From positions 1 through 7,229 of the forward strand of contig JBHLRO010000054.1 in NCBI GenBank assembly GCA_048882505.1: a stretch of 7,229 nt of DNA, read 5' to 3'. Source of the stretch: Candidatus Thorarchaeota archaeon (GTDB taxonomy: Archaea; Asgardarchaeota; Heimdallarchaeia; Hodarchaeales; Hodarchaeaceae). This document shows positions 1 through 7,229 of the stretch, piece after piece. The stretch's first letter is position 1; every line of letters starts with the position of its first letter. The notes beneath the pieces are model-generated. The model ran no database searches. It had not been told where the DNA came from and saw only the letters and a list, made by a program, of their open reading frames with translations. Position numbers and translations under genes: made by a program.

Positions 1-579
1 TCGAAGCTGGATCCTGCCCTCCTTGAACATCTTGTCCAAGACCGTACCCTTCTGAAAGAGCAAATCCAAATGCTGACTAAACTCATGAGTGAATTCTGTG
101 GCGCAGTCCTTGATGCTGGCTCTGATGGCCTTTTCTTGACAACCCAACACTTTAATTCTCTCCTCAGCGCATCTAGCCTCAACGATTTTGAGTTCCAACC
201 TCTAAAAGCACTTCTCGATCAATACCACCATAAATCGGCCTTCAATGTGCTTCATCTGCACGGAAATTCTCCATTTTTCCATAAAGCCACAGAACTTCCT
301 CATGTCTCAGCTATTAATTGGCATGATCAGAGAACGAAACCTTCACTTCTTGAAGCTCGTCAACATTTCGACAGGGGCCTCCTGGGAGGTCTTGATGAAA
401 TGGGGATACTGAAAACCGGAACCAGAGGCGATATCGAACAGGCCATTTACTCTATTCACAGGCAATTTAATGATTGGGGCTTAATGTTTGCCCCAGGATG
501 TGTCCTCCCCCTCGATATTCCTGATGAACACCTAACATGGGTAGCAGAAGCAATAAACTCTCTGCAGCCCATAGGTTGA
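1..579 (+). CDS. Uroporphyrinogen decarboxylase (URO-D)/MtaA-CmuA superfamily TIM-barrel protein, 5'-truncated by the window edge; probably not true HemE
   Basis: The frame is open from base 1 (SKLDPALLEHLVQDRTLLKEQIQ-MLTKL...), so ATG 70 is probably internal. Stop is TGA 577-579. The C-terminal half has family-typical motifs: AGSDGLF, FNVLHLHG, AINWHD, LLGGLDE..L..GT...I, and GLMFAPGCVLPLDIPDEHL. Confidence 0.8.
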   Translation, partial: SKLDPALLEHLVQDRTLLKEQIQMLTKLMSEFCGAVLDAGSDGLFLTTQHFNSLLSASSLNDFEFQPLKALLDQYHHKSAFNVLHLHGNSPFFHKATELPHVSAINWHDQRTKPSLLEARQHFDRGLLGGLDEMGILKTGTRGDIEQAIYSIHRQFNDWGLMFAPGCVLPLDIPDEHLTWVAEAINSLQPIG

Positions 580-638: not shown

Positions 639-3578
639 TTATGATGAAATGTCCTGCACCAATTCGTTAGTTTTTTGGCTTGCTTTAGCTACAATCACTG
701 CAACATTTGAACCTAATATAGTTAAGATAATACCCAGATCTATTTGTGGACGGATGATCATGCCTCCAACATTCACATTTCTTAGTTCTGGGAAAAGAGT
801 CATGAGCCACATACCTATAAAGGCTCCAACAGCACTTGCAAAAAACCCGAGAAGTGATAATTGAGTTACTACTCCCATTAGGACTTGCGCTCTACTAGTA
901 CCCAGCTGACGAAAGACTCTCAAAGTCTTGGAATTGGAAACAATCGGATGCGAAATTACGGACGCGATACTTAGTAGAGACAGCACGGAAACGATAATTA
1001 CGAGACTAGAAAAAGTTGTAATGATGATATTCAATGTTGATTGCAGAAAACCAGATACAAAGTCTCCAGAAAGAACAATTGAGTAAGATTGTCCTTGGCG
1101 AAAATTAAATCCTGATAAGTCGATGACAATGCCCGCTGTAACTTGAATCGGAATTTTATCTTCAAATGCCGTGAACGAAATGAGCTGTCTTGGAAACGAT
1201 TCCTCAAAGAATGTTGCCTTCACTGTCCAGTTTCCCCAAGGCATCTTATAGAATGTTACCTCCCCATTAACATCAGTAAAACCTTCAAAAGTCAAATTGT
1301 AGTAAGAATTGGTGATTTGGATGAATCCCTTGTTCATTTTTTGAGAAAATTTGTTGAGAAGCTCCAGTGTCATCCTTCCGCTCAGTTTCATTGTTTTGAC
1401 GACTGTAAGGATTTGGCTTTCAGATAAGGTAATGTTTTCTTGGAGGATATTCGGCCCCTTTATGAATTTCATGATATAAGTTCCTATTGGGACTATAACT
1501 TCAGATCGCCCTTTCTTGTTTGTCCGTGATTCGGAAGAATACCCATTTTGGTCAATCAAAATTACAGAAATCCCCTCTAAGGGTACGCCATCAGGAGTGA
1601 GGGTGGTAATGTTCAGTTTTACCTTTCCCAAAGGGATTTGATATATGTGATTTCTTAACCGAATTTGGGTTGTCCTATTTATATTGTAGATATCTTTTTC
1701 CACCTGAATATTGTATTGACCAGGGATAGTAAGACTAAAGGAAACTTGACCCGATGAATCAGATATATCTGTCCCTATCAAATGGTTTGAAGCGTTAAAT
1801 ATCCTAATTGTTGCTCCTACAAGCGTATTATTTGGTTGAGATGCTAGTGTACCATTTACCACAATCAGATCCAAACGATAGATATTCACCAGGTCTATGG
1901 CGAGCGTGAAATCGTTTTGAAACGTAATACTGTTGTTTTGTAATTGGCTTTGGTTAGCTGGTGAAATTGCAATCACCTGGTACTCTACTCCCACTTCCAC
2001 TTGGAAATCCACAATTCCATTACTATTCGTGAAATCTTGGGCGACCCTTTGTCCTTCGCTCATAATGGTGACATTGGAAGAAACTAATCCTAATCCATTC
2101 TCTCCTCGTACCCAAACTCTGAGATTTCTCCTCCCTATCTGAATGTATCTTCTAACGTGGGAATAGATGGAAGCAAACTGCCGTTTTATAACACCTCCCA
2201 ATTCAAACCTAATTTCATACTCAGCAGGTTCTAAGAAAATCAAGGTACCATTTTGATAATTCTCGTTGTCATAGATCAAGGTCTGATTCGATGTAAATAG
2301 AATTTGTAAGTGCCCTCCGTTTACCTCAGCTCCCGTATTAATGTCAGTGACAATTAATTCAAGAGAACTCTCAAGTTCAAGTTCAACCGTTGTAGATTCA
2401 TTTACAACAATGTCATACGATTGAAATATCTCACCATGTTCAACATAAAGTGTATGAAAAGTCGCTGTCAGATTATCAAACCTAGCGAATCCTGAGCTGT
2501 TTGTCGGAGATATATGCAAAAACCTATCCCCAAATGTTTCCCAGAGGGTCAACGACGCATTAATAGCTGCTTCCTTATTGTAAGTAACATTGAAAAAGAG
2601 GGTATACCGAGGTTCGCCTATGGTTAGGGAGACAGGGGCGCTAAAAGTTTGATTAACGAGAACAGTCAAAACGGGGCTATTTGGAAGATCGGGAGGAGTT
2701 GCGATAAATTCGTACGTCCCGAAACCCAGTGTAAAATCAATAATACTTCCTATGTTGGCCATTTGCTCTTTGACAAAAGCTCCCTGCGCGGTGTACACTA
2801 CAATAGGGACTTGTGTTGCAGGTGTATTCAGTCTTGGGTCTAAGCTTTTCAAAACCACGGGCACGGTGTATTCAGTGTTTAATATCGTGAATAATTTATC
2901 TTTTGTAATTTCCGCTTCATCAATTAGTACCCGAAAAAAGGAGACATAGCCAATATCCTTGTTTGTTAGTGATTTGCCTAAGGATAACGAGACCAATATC
3001 TCTTCATCGCTAGGAGTATCAGTTTTGATGACCCCCGTTACAAAAACATCCAGCACCATATCAGTTATAGTACTTGCTAGCTTAATGGTATCACCCAGCC
3101 CAATTCCCAGACTTGACGATAAAATATACCCTATTACTGCACCTTTTGGCCGATCTATATCCGCTGTGCCATAACTTGAATCAAACCACGAACCTTCAAG
3201 AAGGGTAATTTCCGCCAATTGTGTGAAAACCGGTGTGACACCTCTAACGAGTACTGATTTTTCGTCAAAATTCTGCGCGACGGCAAAACCCAGTGTTTCT
3301 GCGCTAATTGCCCTAACGCCTCTTATATTTTCAATATCATGTTGAAGGTACTCTGGAACTGCCCCCGTAATGGGGGTCGTCGTTCCTGGCTGCGCAACAA
3401 TTAAAATATCATCGGCTTCTCCTATGAGAAATTCCTCAGTAGTCACTCCGAGCATGAAGGCACCAATCGCTCCTGATGTCGCTGATACTAGCATTATCCC
3501 GATAATGAATAACCATACATCTCGGAGGGCAAATATTTTCACCCTTATTAAATCAAGAGCATTGAATGTGTTCTTCAA
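639..3578 (-). CDS. MacB/FtsX-family (type VII) ABC transporter permease, 979 aa, with about 7 inserted beta-sandwich (carboxypeptidase-regulatory-like/Cna-B-like) repeats
   Basis: TTG start at 3578, 9 nt after the upstream gene's TAG; TAA at 639-641. TM1 is at about aa 22-45. A MacB periplasmic-core-like segment spans about aa 46-236 (VLVRGV, LLEGSWF, AVIGYILSSSLGIGLGDTI, VTGVI, DEEILVSL). The repeat array spans about aa 237-814. The C-terminal FtsX domain has 3 TMs and the motif TLRVFRQLGTSRAQV. The exact start is less certain than the frame. Confidence 0.88.
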   Translation of the reverse strand: MKNTFNALDLIRVKIFALRDVWLFIIGIMLVSATSGAIGAFMLGVTTEEFLIGEADDILIVAQPGTTTPITGAVPEYLQHDIENIRGVRAISAETLGFAVAQNFDEKSVLVRGVTPVFTQLAEITLLEGSWFDSSYGTADIDRPKGAVIGYILSSSLGIGLGDTIKLASTITDMVLDVFVTGVIKTDTPSDEEILVSLSLGKSLTNKDIGYVSFFRVLIDEAEITKDKLFTILNTEYTVPVVLKSLDPRLNTPATQVPIVVYTAQGAFVKEQMANIGSIIDFTLGFGTYEFIATPPDLPNSPVLTVLVNQTFSAPVSLTIGEPRYTLFFNVTYNKEAAINASLTLWETFGDRFLHISPTNSSGFARFDNLTATFHTLYVEHGEIFQSYDIVVNESTTVELELESSLELIVTDINTGAEVNGGHLQILFTSNQTLIYDNENYQNGTLIFLEPAEYEIRFELGGVIKRQFASIYSHVRRYIQIGRRNLRVWVRGENGLGLVSSNVTIMSEGQRVAQDFTNSNGIVDFQVEVGVEYQVIAISPANQSQLQNNSITFQNDFTLAIDLVNIYRLDLIVVNGTLASQPNNTLVGATIRIFNASNHLIGTDISDSSGQVSFSLTIPGQYNIQVEKDIYNINRTTQIRLRNHIYQIPLGKVKLNITTLTPDGVPLEGISVILIDQNGYSSESRTNKKGRSEVIVPIGTYIMKFIKGPNILQENITLSESQILTVVKTMKLSGRMTLELLNKFSQKMNKGFIQITNSYYNLTFEGFTDVNGEVTFYKMPWGNWTVKATFFEESFPRQLISFTAFEDKIPIQVTAGIVIDLSGFNFRQGQSYSIVLSGDFVSGFLQSTLNIIITTFSSLVIIVSVLSLLSIASVISHPIVSNSKTLRVFRQLGTSRAQVLMGVVTQLSLLGFFASAVGAFIGMWLMTLFPELRNVNVGGMIIRPQIDLGIILTILGSNVAVIVAKASQKTNELVQDISS
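1137..2870 (-). repeat. Protein-level tandem array of about seven 79-87-aa beta-rich domains inside the 979-aa permease
   Basis: Approximate units are aa 237-321, 322-403, 404-482, 483-564, 565-651, 652-731 and 732-814. Each follows the pattern hydrophobic strand - G/P-x-V/I-x-I strand - (T/S)(N/D)xxG turn - F - G/P-x-Y strand. The turn motif is seen as PTNSSG, FTNSNG, ISDSSG, RTNKKG and FTDVNG. No DNA-level identity between units is apparent. Confidence 0.75.
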
Positions 3579-3587
3579 TCTTTTACC

Positions 3588-4757
3588 CTACCGATCTCTC
3601 CCATGGGTCGATAACGAAAGGAGACCTGGTGACTTACGAGTAATACGAGTAGCTGGAAAAAGACCAGCAGCTATTGAGACAATATTGGATAGTACAAACA
3701 GGATTAAGATGACATCAGCATTAAAGTCAGGTGCAAAGAATCCTCCCTCAAAAAATAAGGTTAACAATGTGAATAATGAGGAAGGAATTAATATCCCAAA
3801 GAAAAAACCCGCAAAAAATCCAAATAGGCCAATTATTTCTGCAAGGAATAAGATTAGGAAAAACAATTGATTGGATGATAATCCAAACGACCGCATAATT
3901 AAAAGATCTCTTTCATATTTACGCACAAACCAGGAAATAGCGTGGGATTCCCTGATTAAGGCAATAATAAACAAAACAGTGAAGAGAAGATTTAACTTAC
4001 TTACAATATCAGAGAAAAGTCCATCTGCAAAAATATCGGTTTGCTGTTCAGGTTTTATTGTTATCTCAGGAAAGTCTTCTAGAACCTTGTATAAATCACT
4101 AATCGTTTCTTTGATGAATACACCATTCTTTAGACTGATTTTTATCTTCTGGTAGCTCTTGGGTTGAGTTTCGTTATTTTTATCAAAAAGCAACTGAAAT
4201 TTGTCAACATTTAGCAAGATAGAACTCTGAAATTCCTTTATTCCTTGTATAAGTCCACTAATTTGTAGGGTTCCAAATATTCCATCGGATGCATCAGTGA
4301 CATTAATGATAGAAGATTCTAGAAGTGATTGGAGATCACTTCCTGCCAAACACTCACTGGTACTGGAATTCGACGAAGGAATAGATCCTGCGATCACATC
4401 TGCCTTTACGTAATAGCTCAATAGACTAGTAACATTGATACCAACAAGGCGCGTTTGAAATGTTCTATTGCCAGTTGTGATATTAACGTCTCTTTCAAGA
4501 ATAGGCATAACTTGTTGTATGTTAGGATGAATTAACAAAGGGAGAACATCTGAAGATATATTTACATTGCTTGTTTCGAGAAAAAGGCTCGAGGATTCAC
4601 CGGCCCTCTGGGTAATACCGAATATCTGTACAGAAAACCCTGAGATAACCCCTGAGATAGCGACCATCATTGTAATGATCAGGGCAAACCCAATAATCGA
4701 CCGAAGCGAATGCTTATAGCTTCGGCCTATAATTCTCACAATATAGCTTACTAACAC
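3588..4757 (-). CDS. MacB/FtsX-family (type VII) ABC transporter permease, 389 aa
   Basis: GTG start at 4757 with AGGAG 8 nt upstream; TAG at 3588-3590. Architecture is TM1 (SIIGFALIITMMVAISGVISGF), a MacB-PCD-like domain (LVGIN, VIAGSIP, CLAGSDL, ISGLI) and three C-terminal TMs. It has the motifs ERDLLIMRSFGLSSNQL and the terminal LFPATRITRKSP typical of FtsX-domain proteins. Confidence 0.9.
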   Translation of the reverse strand: MLVSYIVRIIGRSYKHSLRSIIGFALIITMMVAISGVISGFSVQIFGITQRAGESSSLFLETSNVNISSDVLPLLIHPNIQQVMPILERDVNITTGNRTFQTRLVGINVTSLLSYYVKADVIAGSIPSSNSSTSECLAGSDLQSLLESSIINVTDASDGIFGTLQISGLIQGIKEFQSSILLNVDKFQLLFDKNNETQPKSYQKIKISLKNGVFIKETISDLYKVLEDFPEITIKPEQQTDIFADGLFSDIVSKLNLLFTVLFIIALIRESHAISWFVRKYERDLLIMRSFGLSSNQLFFLILFLAEIIGLFGFFAGFFFGILIPSSLFTLLTLFFEGGFFAPDFNADVILILFVLSNIVSIAAGLFPATRITRKSPGLLSLSTHGRDR

Positions 4758-4764
4758 CTATTGT

Positions 4765-4771
4765 ACTCCTA
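4765..4771 (-). promoter_or_regulatory. Ribosome-binding site for the 389-aa permease
   Basis: The minus strand reads ttAGGAGtacaatagGTG, a Shine-Dalgarno-like AGGAG 8 nt before the GTG. Confidence 0.65.
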
Positions 4772-4927
4772 ATATTGATCCATTCAAGAATTTTAATTCT
4801 TTCATCCGTTTTCTAGAATCATAGATTTGTTTGAGAGGAGATCATAACTACTTAATTCCGTTGAACTATCACTCCTATATGTATTGTATATTCTTAGATA
4901 AATGAAATTATATCGTCACTAAGACTA

Positions 4928-4940
4928 TATTTAATTTCCT
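4928..4940 (-). promoter_or_regulatory. Candidate archaeal-type promoter (BRE + TATA box) for the permease unit; may also serve the divergent GT-C gene
   Basis: The minus strand reads AGGAAA-TTAAATA, a purine-rich BRE-like hexamer directly followed by a TTWAATA box. The same bases read TATATTTAA on the plus strand (4926-4934), about 40 nt upstream of ATG 4973. The region is AT-rich, so a chance match is possible. Confidence 0.4.
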
Positions 4941-4972
4941 AATAAGCCCTCGAAGACCAAAAGGTTAATCAA

Positions 4973-7229
4973 ATGGATTTAATACTCAATTTCCTGCCAG
5001 TCATCACAATTTTGGCTGTTGGAGGGGGAGTGTGGCAGATTTTTTACAAGTTTAATAAAAAGAAGCTCCGTATCGCCGAGCACTTCAATGTTTTCTTATT
5101 AATCGGCTCCTTTCTCCTTATTGTTCCCTTAACTTGGGTCGGAATACAACCAAACGGTGTATGGACCGTTACAGTAGGATCCCAAAGCTTGGATCTAGTT
5201 AACTTCTCAGGATGGAATTTGCTCTATTTTTTTACGGGCCTGATTATTTGCTTGATCGGGGGTTATTTTGCCCTGCGCAGGATATTGGGATCCTTTGAAG
5301 AGTTTCATATAGATTTTGCAGAACTTATCAACTATCGCACGGTTTTGATCGGCTTTCTCATCCTAGATTATTTGTTCCTATCAATTGTGTTGCCTTTGAG
5401 AGGTTTCGACACATTATATTATTATTTACCAGAAACAGAGGTCTTTCACCAAACTAATCGCATAACCGAAGCAAACTATCTTTCGTTTCTCCCTGTTGTC
5501 AAAAGTCCCATGAATGTCCTCATTTTTGTCTATGGGTATTACATAACAAATGATTTAGCGATCTACCTTATCCCCTTTCTCTTTTTTCTTGGGTTAGTGT
5601 TCCTTGTTTATGATTTTTCACTAGAACTTTTCGACAACAGGCTCCTAGCTCAAACTAGCGTTATTTTCTTACTGACATTGCCGTTATTATATTGGTTCAT
5701 GGATTTTTGGGCCTTTTACCAGGATCTATTCCTCTGCTACTTCGTTTCAGTAACCTGCTATTTCAGTTACAAGTGGTTTAAATCTCCCTCGAATCAGATT
5801 AACGGGATTTTTGTTGGGATGGGACTAATCCTTTCAATCCTAACCAAAATAACTGCGTGGATATTGCCTATAATCCTCGTATGCTGGCTTCCCTCTGGGT
5901 CAAAAGGCAAAGTAATTCGAATTGGGCTTATTTTGGGATTAGGACTTTTTACTTACCTTCAAGTGGCTACGCGAATCTATATAGGTGCGATCCTCCCTAT
6001 CGCGCTTGCCATCATCGCCGTCATCTATCTAATTGGAATCGAGCAGAATCCTGGGACTTCGACGCGGGGTTTTTTGCGTCAGATTCCAGTTTTCGGAGGT
6101 ATGCTTATAGGAAGTTTCTGGATTCTCGATCGCATTTCTCTATCAGATGCGGTTTGGGAGGAGATTTCCAGAACATATTTCGAGGTGGTTCATGTAATCA
6201 AATGGGTTTATCCGAGTCAACCACAAGATCCTCTCCTACACACGCTTGAAGTCGTACATAGAATTAATTTTTTCTCAGCCGCTGGGATATTGTTCTTGGG
6301 ATCTGCATTTGTTTTACCGTGGATTGTTTTGAAATTCTATTCACTGAGGGAACTTAAACCGATCACTCCACTTCTCATCTGGATTCTCTTATTCTTCATT
6401 GTTTGGGTCACCTACTACCTTACAGGCTCCATTCGTTATCTCGCACCCATTATCGTTCCTATGGTTCTTTGGGTTGCTTGGGGATTCCATCAATTGGTTA
6501 AAATCGTGAATCATAGGATTAGTTCCGACTTTTTACTCATTTTATTCGCCTCCTTTGGAACTTTTAGTTTTTATTATTTAATTCCTTTAGATAGCTTAAC
6601 CATTTCCGATCAAACTCAAGAATCGATTGGCCTTGCTTATAACCAAGCTGCTTTGAGTTATTATTCCCATCCTGAGGTTTTGTTGATACTTGGCCTGCTG
6701 CTTATAGTCGTCTTTATGGGACTTACTCGCGAATACACAGTTACCAGGTTAAAATGGCCAAGATATTCAGTTTATTTTCAACGAATTCGAAATGGGCTCC
6801 TCTCCGCTGTTCTCATTGTCATAATCTTAACCCCGATTGCTGTCCAAGGTTACTTACTAGTGTACACAAACGGGAATTTGAGAGAATTCCATTCGATTGT
6901 TGAATATGAATATCGACCCGAGTATCAAGATCTAGTGAAAGTAATACAACAACAGAATCAACCCATCGCAGGGATCATGACCGTTAGAACGCCAGGTTTC
7001 CAGTTTTTCGTCGGTCAACCTACCCTTGATATTTATTACCAGAGAAGTCTTTTTGCCGGCAATCCATTCTTTACTTTAACAAATCTAACTGAAATTATTG
7101 ACATTTTACAGAACCCTCTTGATTATATTATCGAGACTGATTTCTCTTTCAACATCTCAGTATCTTTTAATTTCATTGTTGTCCCTTCTATGGCTAATCT
7201 TTATTATGAGATCTATCTCTCGGAAATTC
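4973..7229 (+). CDS. Polytopic GT-C-fold glycosyltransferase (ArnT/PMT/GT39-GT83-like), at least 752 aa, runs off the 3' end of the window; absent from the supplied ORF track
   Basis: I translated it manually from ATG 4973 (MDLILNFLPVITILAVGGGVWQIF...). The frame is stop-free to the window end (...NLYYEIYLSEI) and has many hydrophobic segments. GT-C-like motifs are LPLRGFD(146)TLYYYLPE in the first large loop, KSP, FYQD(251)LFL, LSILTK(292)ITAW and SIR(488)YLAPIIVP. A soluble C-terminal domain begins after about aa 630. Confidence 0.85.
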   Translation, partial: MDLILNFLPVITILAVGGGVWQIFYKFNKKKLRIAEHFNVFLLIGSFLLIVPLTWVGIQPNGVWTVTVGSQSLDLVNFSGWNLLYFFTGLIICLIGGYFALRRILGSFEEFHIDFAELINYRTVLIGFLILDYLFLSIVLPLRGFDTLYYYLPETEVFHQTNRITEANYLSFLPVVKSPMNVLIFVYGYYITNDLAIYLIPFLFFLGLVFLVYDFSLELFDNRLLAQTSVIFLLTLPLLYWFMDFWAFYQDLFLCYFVSVTCYFSYKWFKSPSNQINGIFVGMGLILSILTKITAWILPIILVCWLPSGSKGKVIRIGLILGLGLFTYLQVATRIYIGAILPIALAIIAVIYLIGIEQNPGTSTRGFLRQIPVFGGMLIGSFWILDRISLSDAVWEEISRTYFEVVHVIKWVYPSQPQDPLLHTLEVVHRINFFSAAGILFLGSAFVLPWIVLKFYSLRELKPITPLLIWILLFFIVWVTYYLTGSIRYLAPIIVPMVLWVAWGFHQLVKIVNHRISSDFLLILFASFGTFSFYYLIPLDSLTISDQTQESIGLAYNQAALSYYSHPEVLLILGLLLIVVFMGLTREYTVTRLKWPRYSVYFQRIRNGLLSAVLIVIILTPIAVQGYLLVYTNGNLREFHSIVEYEYRPEYQDLVKVIQQQNQPIAGIMTVRTPGFQFFVGQPTLDIYYQRSLFAGNPFFTLTNLTEIIDILQNPLDYIIETDFSFNISVSFNFIVVPSMANLYYEIYLSEI

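Follow-up and report, generated by a model that had tools for sequence, protein, structure and literature searches.

An FtsX-type permease with seven inserted beta-sandwich domains and its conserved neighbor, a predicted GT-C-fold glycosyltransferase, in Hodarchaeales

Introduction

To our knowledge, ABC (ATP-binding cassette) systems of type VII are understood from bacterial examples only, namely MacAB-TolC, LolCDE, FtsEX, and YbbAP. The known partners in this class are MacA-TolC, LolA, EnvC or PcsB, and TesA, and FtsEX-EnvC is a further precedent for work through an extracytoplasmic partner. These systems act via such a partner rather than through a pore (PMC8277102; PMC12646458), as YbbAP-TesA does in extracting hydrophobic compounds from the membrane (PMC12646458), and the part that varies among them, the Sabre subdomain, is spliced between strands β2 and β3 of the Porter subdomain (PMC8277102). 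Here, we describe a locus of this class from an archaeon. The window, that is, the whole stretch of DNA analyzed, is the entire 7,229-bp contig C54 (JBHLRO010000054.1) of a 4.3-Mb genome in 83 contigs, assembled from a member of the Hodarchaeales (GCA_048882505.1). It contains four genes, one of which (639..3578, minus strand) encodes the 979-aa protein that we will call the giant permease.

LolCDE, the type VII lipoprotein extractor of Escherichia coli, offers the closest solved sequences for the periplasmic core domain (PCD) and for transmembrane helices (TMs) 2–4. The two systems share a pair of paralogous four-TM FtsX-type permeases encoded next to each other, and a PCD of Porter plus Sabre between TM1 and TM2. 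Unlike LolCDE, the locus has a giant subunit with a seven-domain insert of 579 aa, its operon has no gene for a LolD-type ATPase, no LolA-like partner is seen in the loci compared, the host is an archaeon with a single membrane, and a GT-C protein is a conserved neighbor. MacB, FtsEX, and YbbAP-TesA belong to the same permease class, from which this locus differs in that the insert is an immunoglobulin (Ig)-like array, likely sited at the end of Porter rather than at the Sabre position, and in that the candidate partner is a polytopic GT-C protein, not a soluble hydrolase or adaptor.

The giant permease

The open reading frame (ORF) of the giant permease, first seen in the letters, is genuine: its TTG start codon and frame are confirmed by 12 full-length orthologues, all from Hodarchaeota and 37–46% identical, whose initial M-K falls in the same place. 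Its parts, with the evidence on which each was delimited (AF2 being AlphaFold2), are as follows:

639..3578, minus strand: giant permease gene, 979 aa, TTG start, stop codon 639-641 (orthologue comparison)
3441..3521, minus strand: TM1, residues ~20-46 (hydropathy; AF2 helix 18-41)
2874..3440, minus strand: MacB/LolC-like periplasmic core domain, residues 47-235 (Pfam MacB_PCD; profile matches)
1137..2873, minus strand: array of seven beta-sandwich domains, residues 236-814, 579 aa (AF2, Foldseek, hhalign)
2613-2873, minus strand: array domain D1 (AF2)
2370-2612, minus strand: array domain D2 (AF2 and hhalign)
2133-2369, minus strand: array domain D3 (AF2)
1887-2132, minus strand: array domain D4 (AF2 and hhalign)
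1626-1886, minus strand: array domain D5 (AF2, hhalign, and CarboxypepD_reg)
1386-1625, minus strand: array domain D6 (AF2 and hhalign)
1137-1385, minus strand: array domain D7 (AF2 and hhalign)
1041..1136, minus strand: return linker, residues 815-846, with the SYSIVLS-GDFVSGF segment at 832-845 (orthologue alignment; AF2 helix)
642..1040, minus strand: FtsX C-terminal domain with TM2, the coupling helix, TM3, and TM4, residues 847-979 (Pfam, hhalign)

Behind a basic, cytoplasmic N-terminal tail, hydropathy places four TMs at ~20–46, 847–881, 899–930, and 945–967, with which the AF2 helices concur, so that some 800 residues separate TM1 from the three C-terminal TMs (~847–967). Pfam recognizes MacB_PCD (PF12704) at residues 25–202 (E 1.3e-12; 48.8 bits against a cut-off of 27), and a profile of the N-terminal 260 residues, drawn from 22 relatives, matches periplasmic-domain structures of LolC and LolE (E 3e-5 to 4e-4), the alignment to the LolC domain stopping at the strand RVLID. 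At the other end, the FtsX match (858–954) is marginal when the whole protein is scanned, at 25.4 bits against a cut-off of 25.5, and reaches 29.8 bits on residues 815–979 alone; hhalign with the family of the small permease encoded next door matches this same domain, TM2–4, at E 1.4e-5. The ESM Atlas model of the giant permease, aligned over query residues 8–971, matches a short archaeal FtsX/MacB_PCD protein over 387 of its 391 residues with a template modeling score (TM-score) of 0.81. From such models, the two flanks of the array are predicted to make up jointly a complete, canonical four-TM permease. By topology, PCD, and FtsX domain, the giant permease belongs structurally to the MacB/FtsX class, and the original prediction of a TM1, a MacB-PCD-like segment, and three FtsX TMs, with Pfam MacB_PCD and FtsX expected on the flanks, is borne out by these searches.

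Conservation is uneven along the protein. Mean column identity is highest of any segment in TM2 and the coupling helix (0.81, with 33% of columns invariant), and stands at 0.74 in the PCD (25% invariant).

The beta-sandwich array

In the AF2 model, which was built on an alignment of 12 sequences, residues 230–815 are all-beta, with a mean predicted local distance difference test (pLDDT) score of ~73–93 per 10-residue block. The 49 strands of the array resolve into seven 7-stranded units of 79–87 aa each, that is, seven sandwiches and not one non-repetitive fold. Foldseek, run on the model of the array, retrieves tandem arrays of the CnaB, SdrD-B, pilin, and macroglobulin-type (MG) domains, and the neighbors in the ESM Atlas concur. 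Among sequence families, CarboxypepD_reg matches residues 574–642 (56.1 bits in the whole protein, 33.7 bits on D5 alone; cut-off 32.3); D6 and D4 are weakly recognized, and D1, D2, D3, and D7, taken singly, have no Pfam match. A domain of the CarboxypepD_reg or Cna_B type, sandwiches of the transthyretin-like clan, had been expected here, and both the D5 match and the Foldseek CnaB arrays agree with that expectation.

The reader should keep in mind that "seven repeats" is a structural statement. BLAST of the giant permease against itself finds no internal repeats, so that the case for repeats is built on AF2 and on profile comparison. When the seven sub-alignments are compared by hhalign, D2, D4, D5, D6, and D7 are linked over their full length (E 5e-7 to 4e-4), while D1 and D3 are marginal and are assigned on the AF2 fold. 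The seven ~80-aa repeats of the original prediction thus stand as structural units, five of them joined by profiles, and fall as sequence repeats: they are diverged structural repeats. With this reading of the word, we are highly confident of the architecture as observed, a permease whose extracytoplasmic domain is interrupted by a ~580-aa array of seven beta-sandwich domains.

All 19 N-x-S/T sequons of the giant permease lie within the array (residues 309–783), where they are concentrated in D2–D6, a placement expected of an exposed archaeal ectodomain. Ser plus Thr make up 13–20% of the array. Mean column identity is 0.68 in D1, 0.54–0.59 in D2–D6, and 0.62 in D7, with 17% of columns invariant in D1, 11% in D7, and 2–8% in D2–D6; as a pattern in aligned sequences, this would fit a fixed base (D1 and D7) and a variable tip (D2–D6).

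In fold and in beads-on-a-string arrangement, the array resembles the CnaB, SdrD-B, and CarboxypepD_reg arrays of Gram-positive bacteria, for example, the Bacillus anthracis TIE protein (6fwv), SdrD, and BcpA. There are two differences. CnaB domains have a Lys-Asn/Asp isopeptide triad, which is not evident here because the array holds no invariant Lys; K628, in the fifth strand of D5, is nearly invariant. A CnaB stalk stabilized by isopeptide bonds (a Lys-Asn/Asp-Glu triad) was accordingly rejected. The second difference is that the Gram-positive adhesin and pilin arrays are free-ended stalks with one anchor, whereas the array of the giant permease is a closed insert.

Where the array is inserted is less firm than the fact that it is. 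AF2 predicts a helix at 226–234 following the RVLID strand, and the strand at 236–245 is required as the first of seven in D1. On the return side, S833, S837, V841, S842, F844, and L845 are invariant in the linker; a long AF2 helix runs from residue 838 into TM2, with SYSIVLS directly ahead of it, at pLDDT values below 50. The SYSIVLS segment is thus a candidate, on this model, for the last Porter strand together with the start of the TM2 stalk helix, and the order of strand and then stalk helix agrees with LolC. We consider it likely that the array enters after the last Porter helix and before the last Porter strand and stalk helix. That site, proposed originally from a comparison with the neighboring 389-aa permease, is made plausible by the end of the LolC-PCD alignment, the strand 236–245, and the position of SYSIVLS before TM2; it is left short of proof since the pLDDT there is below 50 and hhalign to the neighbor's family aligns TM2–4 only.

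As the array is an insert, both of its ends return to the membrane-proximal domain, which makes it a loop or hairpin rather than a free-ended stalk, and with both ends fixed at the base its reach can be at most about half its contour length. The "long arm" of the original prediction has to be shortened to match. Allowing ~4 nm per domain (our own estimate) and three to four domains each way, we estimate the reach of the loop at ~12–15 nm.

Distribution of the architecture

An exhaustive profile search gave 2,879 proteins at E ≤1e-3, of which 114 were at ≤1e-30. Those with the N-terminal PCD anchor run from ~940 to 2,889 aa, which at this domain size would correspond to roughly 7 to 30 domains, and in the relatives of 1,458 and 2,067 aa that were scanned the FtsX domain again stands at the far C-terminus. 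The array-bearing relatives come from Heimdallarchaeota, Odinarchaeota, and Geothermarchaeales, among others. Far from being rare, the architecture is common in archaeal metagenomes, and a survey of homologues for taxonomic range and repeat number, suggested at the outset, thus finds variation in both. In the databases these relatives are labeled only "ABC transporter permease" or "FtsX-like permease family protein." Literature searches on FtsX together with Asgard, GT-C, or carboxypeptidase regulatory-like terms returned no description of the architecture, in line with the original statement that no characterized protein of this kind is recognized, and searches on archaeal type VII ABC systems found none.

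The same type of sandwich also builds proteins of 3,000–6,300 aa with 12–37 matched copies (among them P0026, at 6,305 aa, and P0035-P0039), which are presumably surface proteins. Faint matches to the NOMO and EMC7 families occur among the relatives.

The partner permease and the GT-C neighbor

The giant permease gene shares the contig with the following features, the fourth gene being described at the end of this article:

3588..4757, minus strand: small partner permease gene, 389 aa, GTG start, stop codon 3588-3590
4758..4972, no strand: AT-rich intergenic region between the divergent permease operon and GT-C gene (from the sequence)
4973..7228, plus strand: predicted GT-C-fold glycosyltransferase gene, 752 aa in the window, its 3' end cut by the contig end

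The small gene lies upstream of the giant gene, with 9 nt between its stop codon and the giant gene's start. Its product is a LolC/LolE-like four-TM permease (Pfam FtsX, E 5e-10) whose profile matches the structures of LolF, LolC, and YtrF. The NCBIfam lolCE model (TIGR02212) is matched at E 4.6e-7 with 29 bits against a cut-off of 362, so the protein is not a LolC/E equivalog. To see how far this arrangement is conserved, we compared 25 loci (the window, 20 related loci, and four more) with flanks of up to 10 kb. The partner is ~385 aa long across related loci, and the small gene adjoins or overlaps the giant gene wherever the contig permits a view, except in Odinarchaeota, where a second giant takes its place, and at L025. 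Judged from their sequences, the giant and small permeases are best read as the two unlike halves of a predicted LolCE-like heterodimer.

The original prediction, confined to the permeases, left out what the comparison of loci brings forward: in 20 of the 25 loci (window counted), a GT-C gene adjoins the giant permease gene or lies within ~3 kb of it, and the trio of genes ranges over Hodarchaeales, other Heimdallarchaeia, and Odinarchaeota. Contigs L008, L016, and L021 end short of the expected GT-C position, and L020 ends ~1 kb past the giant gene. Linkage persists through three gene orders: the divergent order, which is that of the window's genus and recurs in L001, L002, L015, L017, L018, and L019; the convergent order, seen in another family of the class with giants of 1,330–1,445 aa; and the co-directional order, at the paralogous locus of genome G208. 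In Odinarchaeota, the GT-C gene is divergent from two tandem giants, with no small permease. Other glycan-synthesis genes flank the module.

Orthologues of the GT-C protein are 780–805 aa long. Neither Pfam nor the sequences of the Protein Data Bank (PDB) yield a match to it, a point in which it departs from ArnT, PMT, and AglB, as it does in an extra N-terminal extension of three TMs. What it has in common with those enzymes is the GT-C fold and an invariant Asp in the first outer loop. Its AF2 model has a predicted TM-score (pTM) of 0.81; all top Foldseek matches are GT-C enzymes at probability 1.0 (AglB, ArnT, Pmt4, PglB, STT3, DPY19, and Emb), the best target-normalized TM-score being that to ArnT (0.53–0.55), and its structural neighbors in the Atlas are PMT_2/ArnT families (TM-score 0.64–0.72). 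D146, the Asp of the first outer loop, shows no variation across 16 sequences. The neighboring gene is accordingly predicted from its model to encode a GT-C fold with a candidate catalytic Asp in the first extracytoplasmic loop, and the AT-rich stretch at 4758..4972 is, from its sequence, the presumed promoter region shared with the permease operon.

Within the genus, the giant permease and the GT-C protein are gained and lost together. The two are co-present or co-absent in 19 of 22 genomes, and copy numbers tally, G208 having two of each. Of the discordant genomes, two (G181 and G292) have their giant-permease matches at the ends of contigs. Genome relatedness inflates counts of this kind, which therefore serve as supporting evidence only.

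Three loci or genomes invite separate mention. In the third discordant genome, G211 (74% complete), no giant permease was found, and the GT-C gene (G211:C242:16135-18378) has one in-frame TGA. In Odinarchaeota, the tandem array-bearing giants without a small partner are L023:4460-7552 and L023:7986-11093 (1,030 and 1,035 aa); the divergent GT-C gene there encodes 932 aa, and a gene with a Ribophorin_I domain lies ~7 kb downstream. At L015 (G252:C152:14900-25626), in the genome of a different family of the phylum, the entire trio is present; compared with the window, its GT-C protein gives a phmmer E of 9e-237, its small permease an E of 9e-121, and its giant has 37% identity. A mis-binned contig could account for this, as could a lateral transfer.

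The ATPase

The permease had originally been predicted to be coupled to an ATP-driven motor. No gene for a MacB-type ATPase is found in the window or at the other 24 loci, and no cognate ATPase is fused to the giant permease or encoded in its operon. Most of the genome's 26 FtsX-type permease genes (46 FtsX domain matches) have an ATPase next to them. Conversely, its ATPases that score above 107 bits against a MacB-type seed all lie within 1.6 kb of an FtsX gene, with one exception. The exception is an orphan ATPase of 233 aa (C18:56587-57288, plus strand; L022:8587-9288), which adjoins the gene for the transcription factor TFB (TFIIB) on a contig with no FtsX gene, and is the sole such MacB-type ATPase of the genome.

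An orthologue of the orphan ATPase is present in 22 of 22 genomes of the genus at 72–97% identity (paralogues ≤55%). As a dedicated partner it was rejected, since it occurs in all 22 genomes with or without the module, and because it is universal, nothing about a role, for or against, follows from its distribution. It is at most a shared candidate engine. Two complete Heimdallarchaeia genomes likewise hold orphan MacB-type ATPases and orphan permeases. Whether the giant permease uses an ATPase is a matter of mixed evidence, with the conservation of TM2 and the coupling helix for it and a degenerate FtsX motif against it.

Four more large FtsX-type permease ORFs, of 883–1,227 aa and with no adjoining gene for a MacB-type ATPase, occur elsewhere in the genome (C1:57131-60751, C3:270388-274071, C6:39298-42204, and C5:126275-128926). 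In two complete Heimdallarchaeia genomes, ORFs of ~1,430–1,505 aa give weak FtsX matches (G074:C1 at ~245988, ~264925, and ~292261; G026:C1 at ~102600, ~133735, and ~152822); one of these adjoins a 588-aa ATPase, and the set may be another giant FtsX family.

A proposed function and its competitors

Enzymes of the GT-C class use lipid-phosphate-linked sugars at the outer face of the membrane. In the explanation that we tentatively prefer, and in which our confidence falls somewhat short of even, the two permeases would form a LolCE-like heterodimer of the type VII ABC class, for which power is probably supplied in trans; together with the GT-C enzyme it would act on a surface glycoconjugate, and the loop would be a spacer or contact. 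We infer this from the anatomy of the proteins and the conserved linkage of their genes. The large subunit would be a four-TM permease with seven CarboxypepD_reg/CnaB-like sandwiches set at the end of Porter, before the TM2 stalk helix; D1 and D7 would form the conserved base of a closed loop or hairpin, and the variable, sequon-rich D2–D6 its distal part. The permease pair and the glycosyltransferase would be one functional unit, in which an ATPase encoded elsewhere may drive movements of the stalk helices, these movements being transmitted to the extracytoplasmic domains. In this way, a lipid-linked glycan or glyco-acceptor might be passed to the GT-C enzyme or taken from it, or that enzyme might be regulated. 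The module as a whole would be an accessory, fast-evolving surface-glycan system.

Cultured Hodarchaeales possess a surface-layer (S-layer)-like lattice of N-glycosylated proteins (bioRxiv 10.1101/2025.02.26.640444), and this makes the lattice a plausible target for a loop of ~12–15 nm, which would be enough to cross the space beneath it; the loop may act as a spacer or contact to this surface layer. A bolder form of the proposal, which we regard as rather doubtful, is an undescribed archaeal envelope machine: an FtsX heterodimer whose looped arm of 7 to ~30 Ig-like domains bridges the space below the S-layer, and which is coupled physically to a GT-C enzyme and builds, delivers, or regulates a surface glycoconjugate, with a shared ATPase acting in trans or none. 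As a weaker corollary, the membrane-anchored CarboxypepD_reg arrays of Heimdallarchaeia could be related to the eukaryotic luminal spacers NOMO and EMC7.

Such a module would extend the type VII class in three ways: an Ig-like loop at a new Porter site, a conserved partner that is a polytopic GT-C protein instead of a soluble adaptor or hydrolase, and routine separation from the ATPase gene. The host lineage is placed closest to eukaryotes, its cell surface has only lately become observable in culture, and the module is a concrete candidate for the means by which this lineage makes or varies its glycosylated envelope.

Several observations weigh against a powered heterodimer that works with a GT-C enzyme. 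The missing ATPase gene at all 25 loci is the first of these, and 14 of the 22 genomes of the genus hold the orphan ATPase yet lack the module. The coupling-helix motif of the giant subunit is degenerate, the usual acidic residues being replaced in the family consensus, and its whole-protein FtsX score is only 25.4 bits. The AF2 model has pLDDT values below 50 for the PCD and the TM domain, and the models do not fix the exact point of insertion. The loop geometry is deduced from topology, the pTM of the giant-permease model being just 0.48. Finally, L013 and L025 have ample flank on both sides yet no GT-C gene; they are the only such loci.

The main competitor, which we think unlikely while giving it real weight, is a displayed glycoprotein. 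Here, the permease body would be chiefly a membrane anchor that has given up the use of an ATPase, the loop a surface-exposed adhesin or part of a glycocalyx, and the GT-C protein the dedicated modifier of this loop, enzyme and substrate giving strain-variable surface decoration. The missing ATPase genes and the degenerate FtsX and coupling motifs just mentioned suit it well, as do the 19 sequons and the Ser+Thr content of the array. The distribution is patchy within the genus, and the giant permease is only 42–45% identical between genome pairs in which the ATPase is 72–80% identical. The 3,000–6,300-aa proteins, with up to 37 copies of the same sandwich, are surface-protein-like in themselves. 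The ADOP family of Acidobacteria (TIGR03434), whose FtsX-type permeases typically lack an adjacent ATPase gene, is a precedent for an "orphan" permease of this kind. The small subunit matches the ADOP model weakly, at E 0.016 and 13 bits against a cut-off of 622, too little for membership; ADOP proteins, moreover, are single-chain duplicated permeases, bacterial, and have no Ig-like arrays. It is hard to square a passive anchor with the fact that TM2 and the coupling helix are the most conserved part of the protein, or with the retention of a small partner that is canonical and keeps its FtsX motif intact (the Odinarchaeota and L025 excepted). Nor is a PMT/ArnT-like enzyme the expected modifier, as N-x-S/T sequons are normally served by AglB.

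Less probable still is a Lol-like extractor, in which the heterodimer would lift a glycolipid or lipid-anchored glycoprotein made by the GT-C enzyme from the outer leaflet and pass it outward along or inside the loop as far as the surface layer. It takes its appeal from the closest solved relatives of the PCD and TM regions being LolC, LolE, and LolF, with NCBIfam also giving lolCE; from two unlike permease subunits, as in LolCDE; from the lipid-linked substrates of the GT-C partner's class; and from the extraction of hydrophobic compounds by YbbAP-TesA (PMC12646458). Against it, LolC/E are only weakly similar (E 1e-4 to 1e-5), perhaps through no more than membership of one class, the loci show neither a LolA-like carrier nor an ATPase gene, and Ig-like sandwiches have no known groove for carrying lipid.

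Envelope defense, in which a BceAB/MacB-like resistance permease and an ArnT-like lipid modifier would act against antimicrobial peptides or viruses with the array as sensor or shield, is the most improbable of the readings, for despite the ArnT match of the GT-C model, the patchy, fast-evolving distribution, and the peptide resistance that MacB/BceAB-class systems commonly confer (PMC5985334), the loci hold no two-component or other regulator, the neighbors are glycan-synthesis rather than defense genes, and lipid A is absent from archaea.

The remaining gene of the contig

One further gene is present at the opposite edge of the contig from the GT-C gene:

1-579, plus strand: 3' part of a URO-D/MtaA-like methyltransferase-family gene (partial)

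This gene is a conserved neighbor downstream of the module, being found in the same place in L001 and L002.

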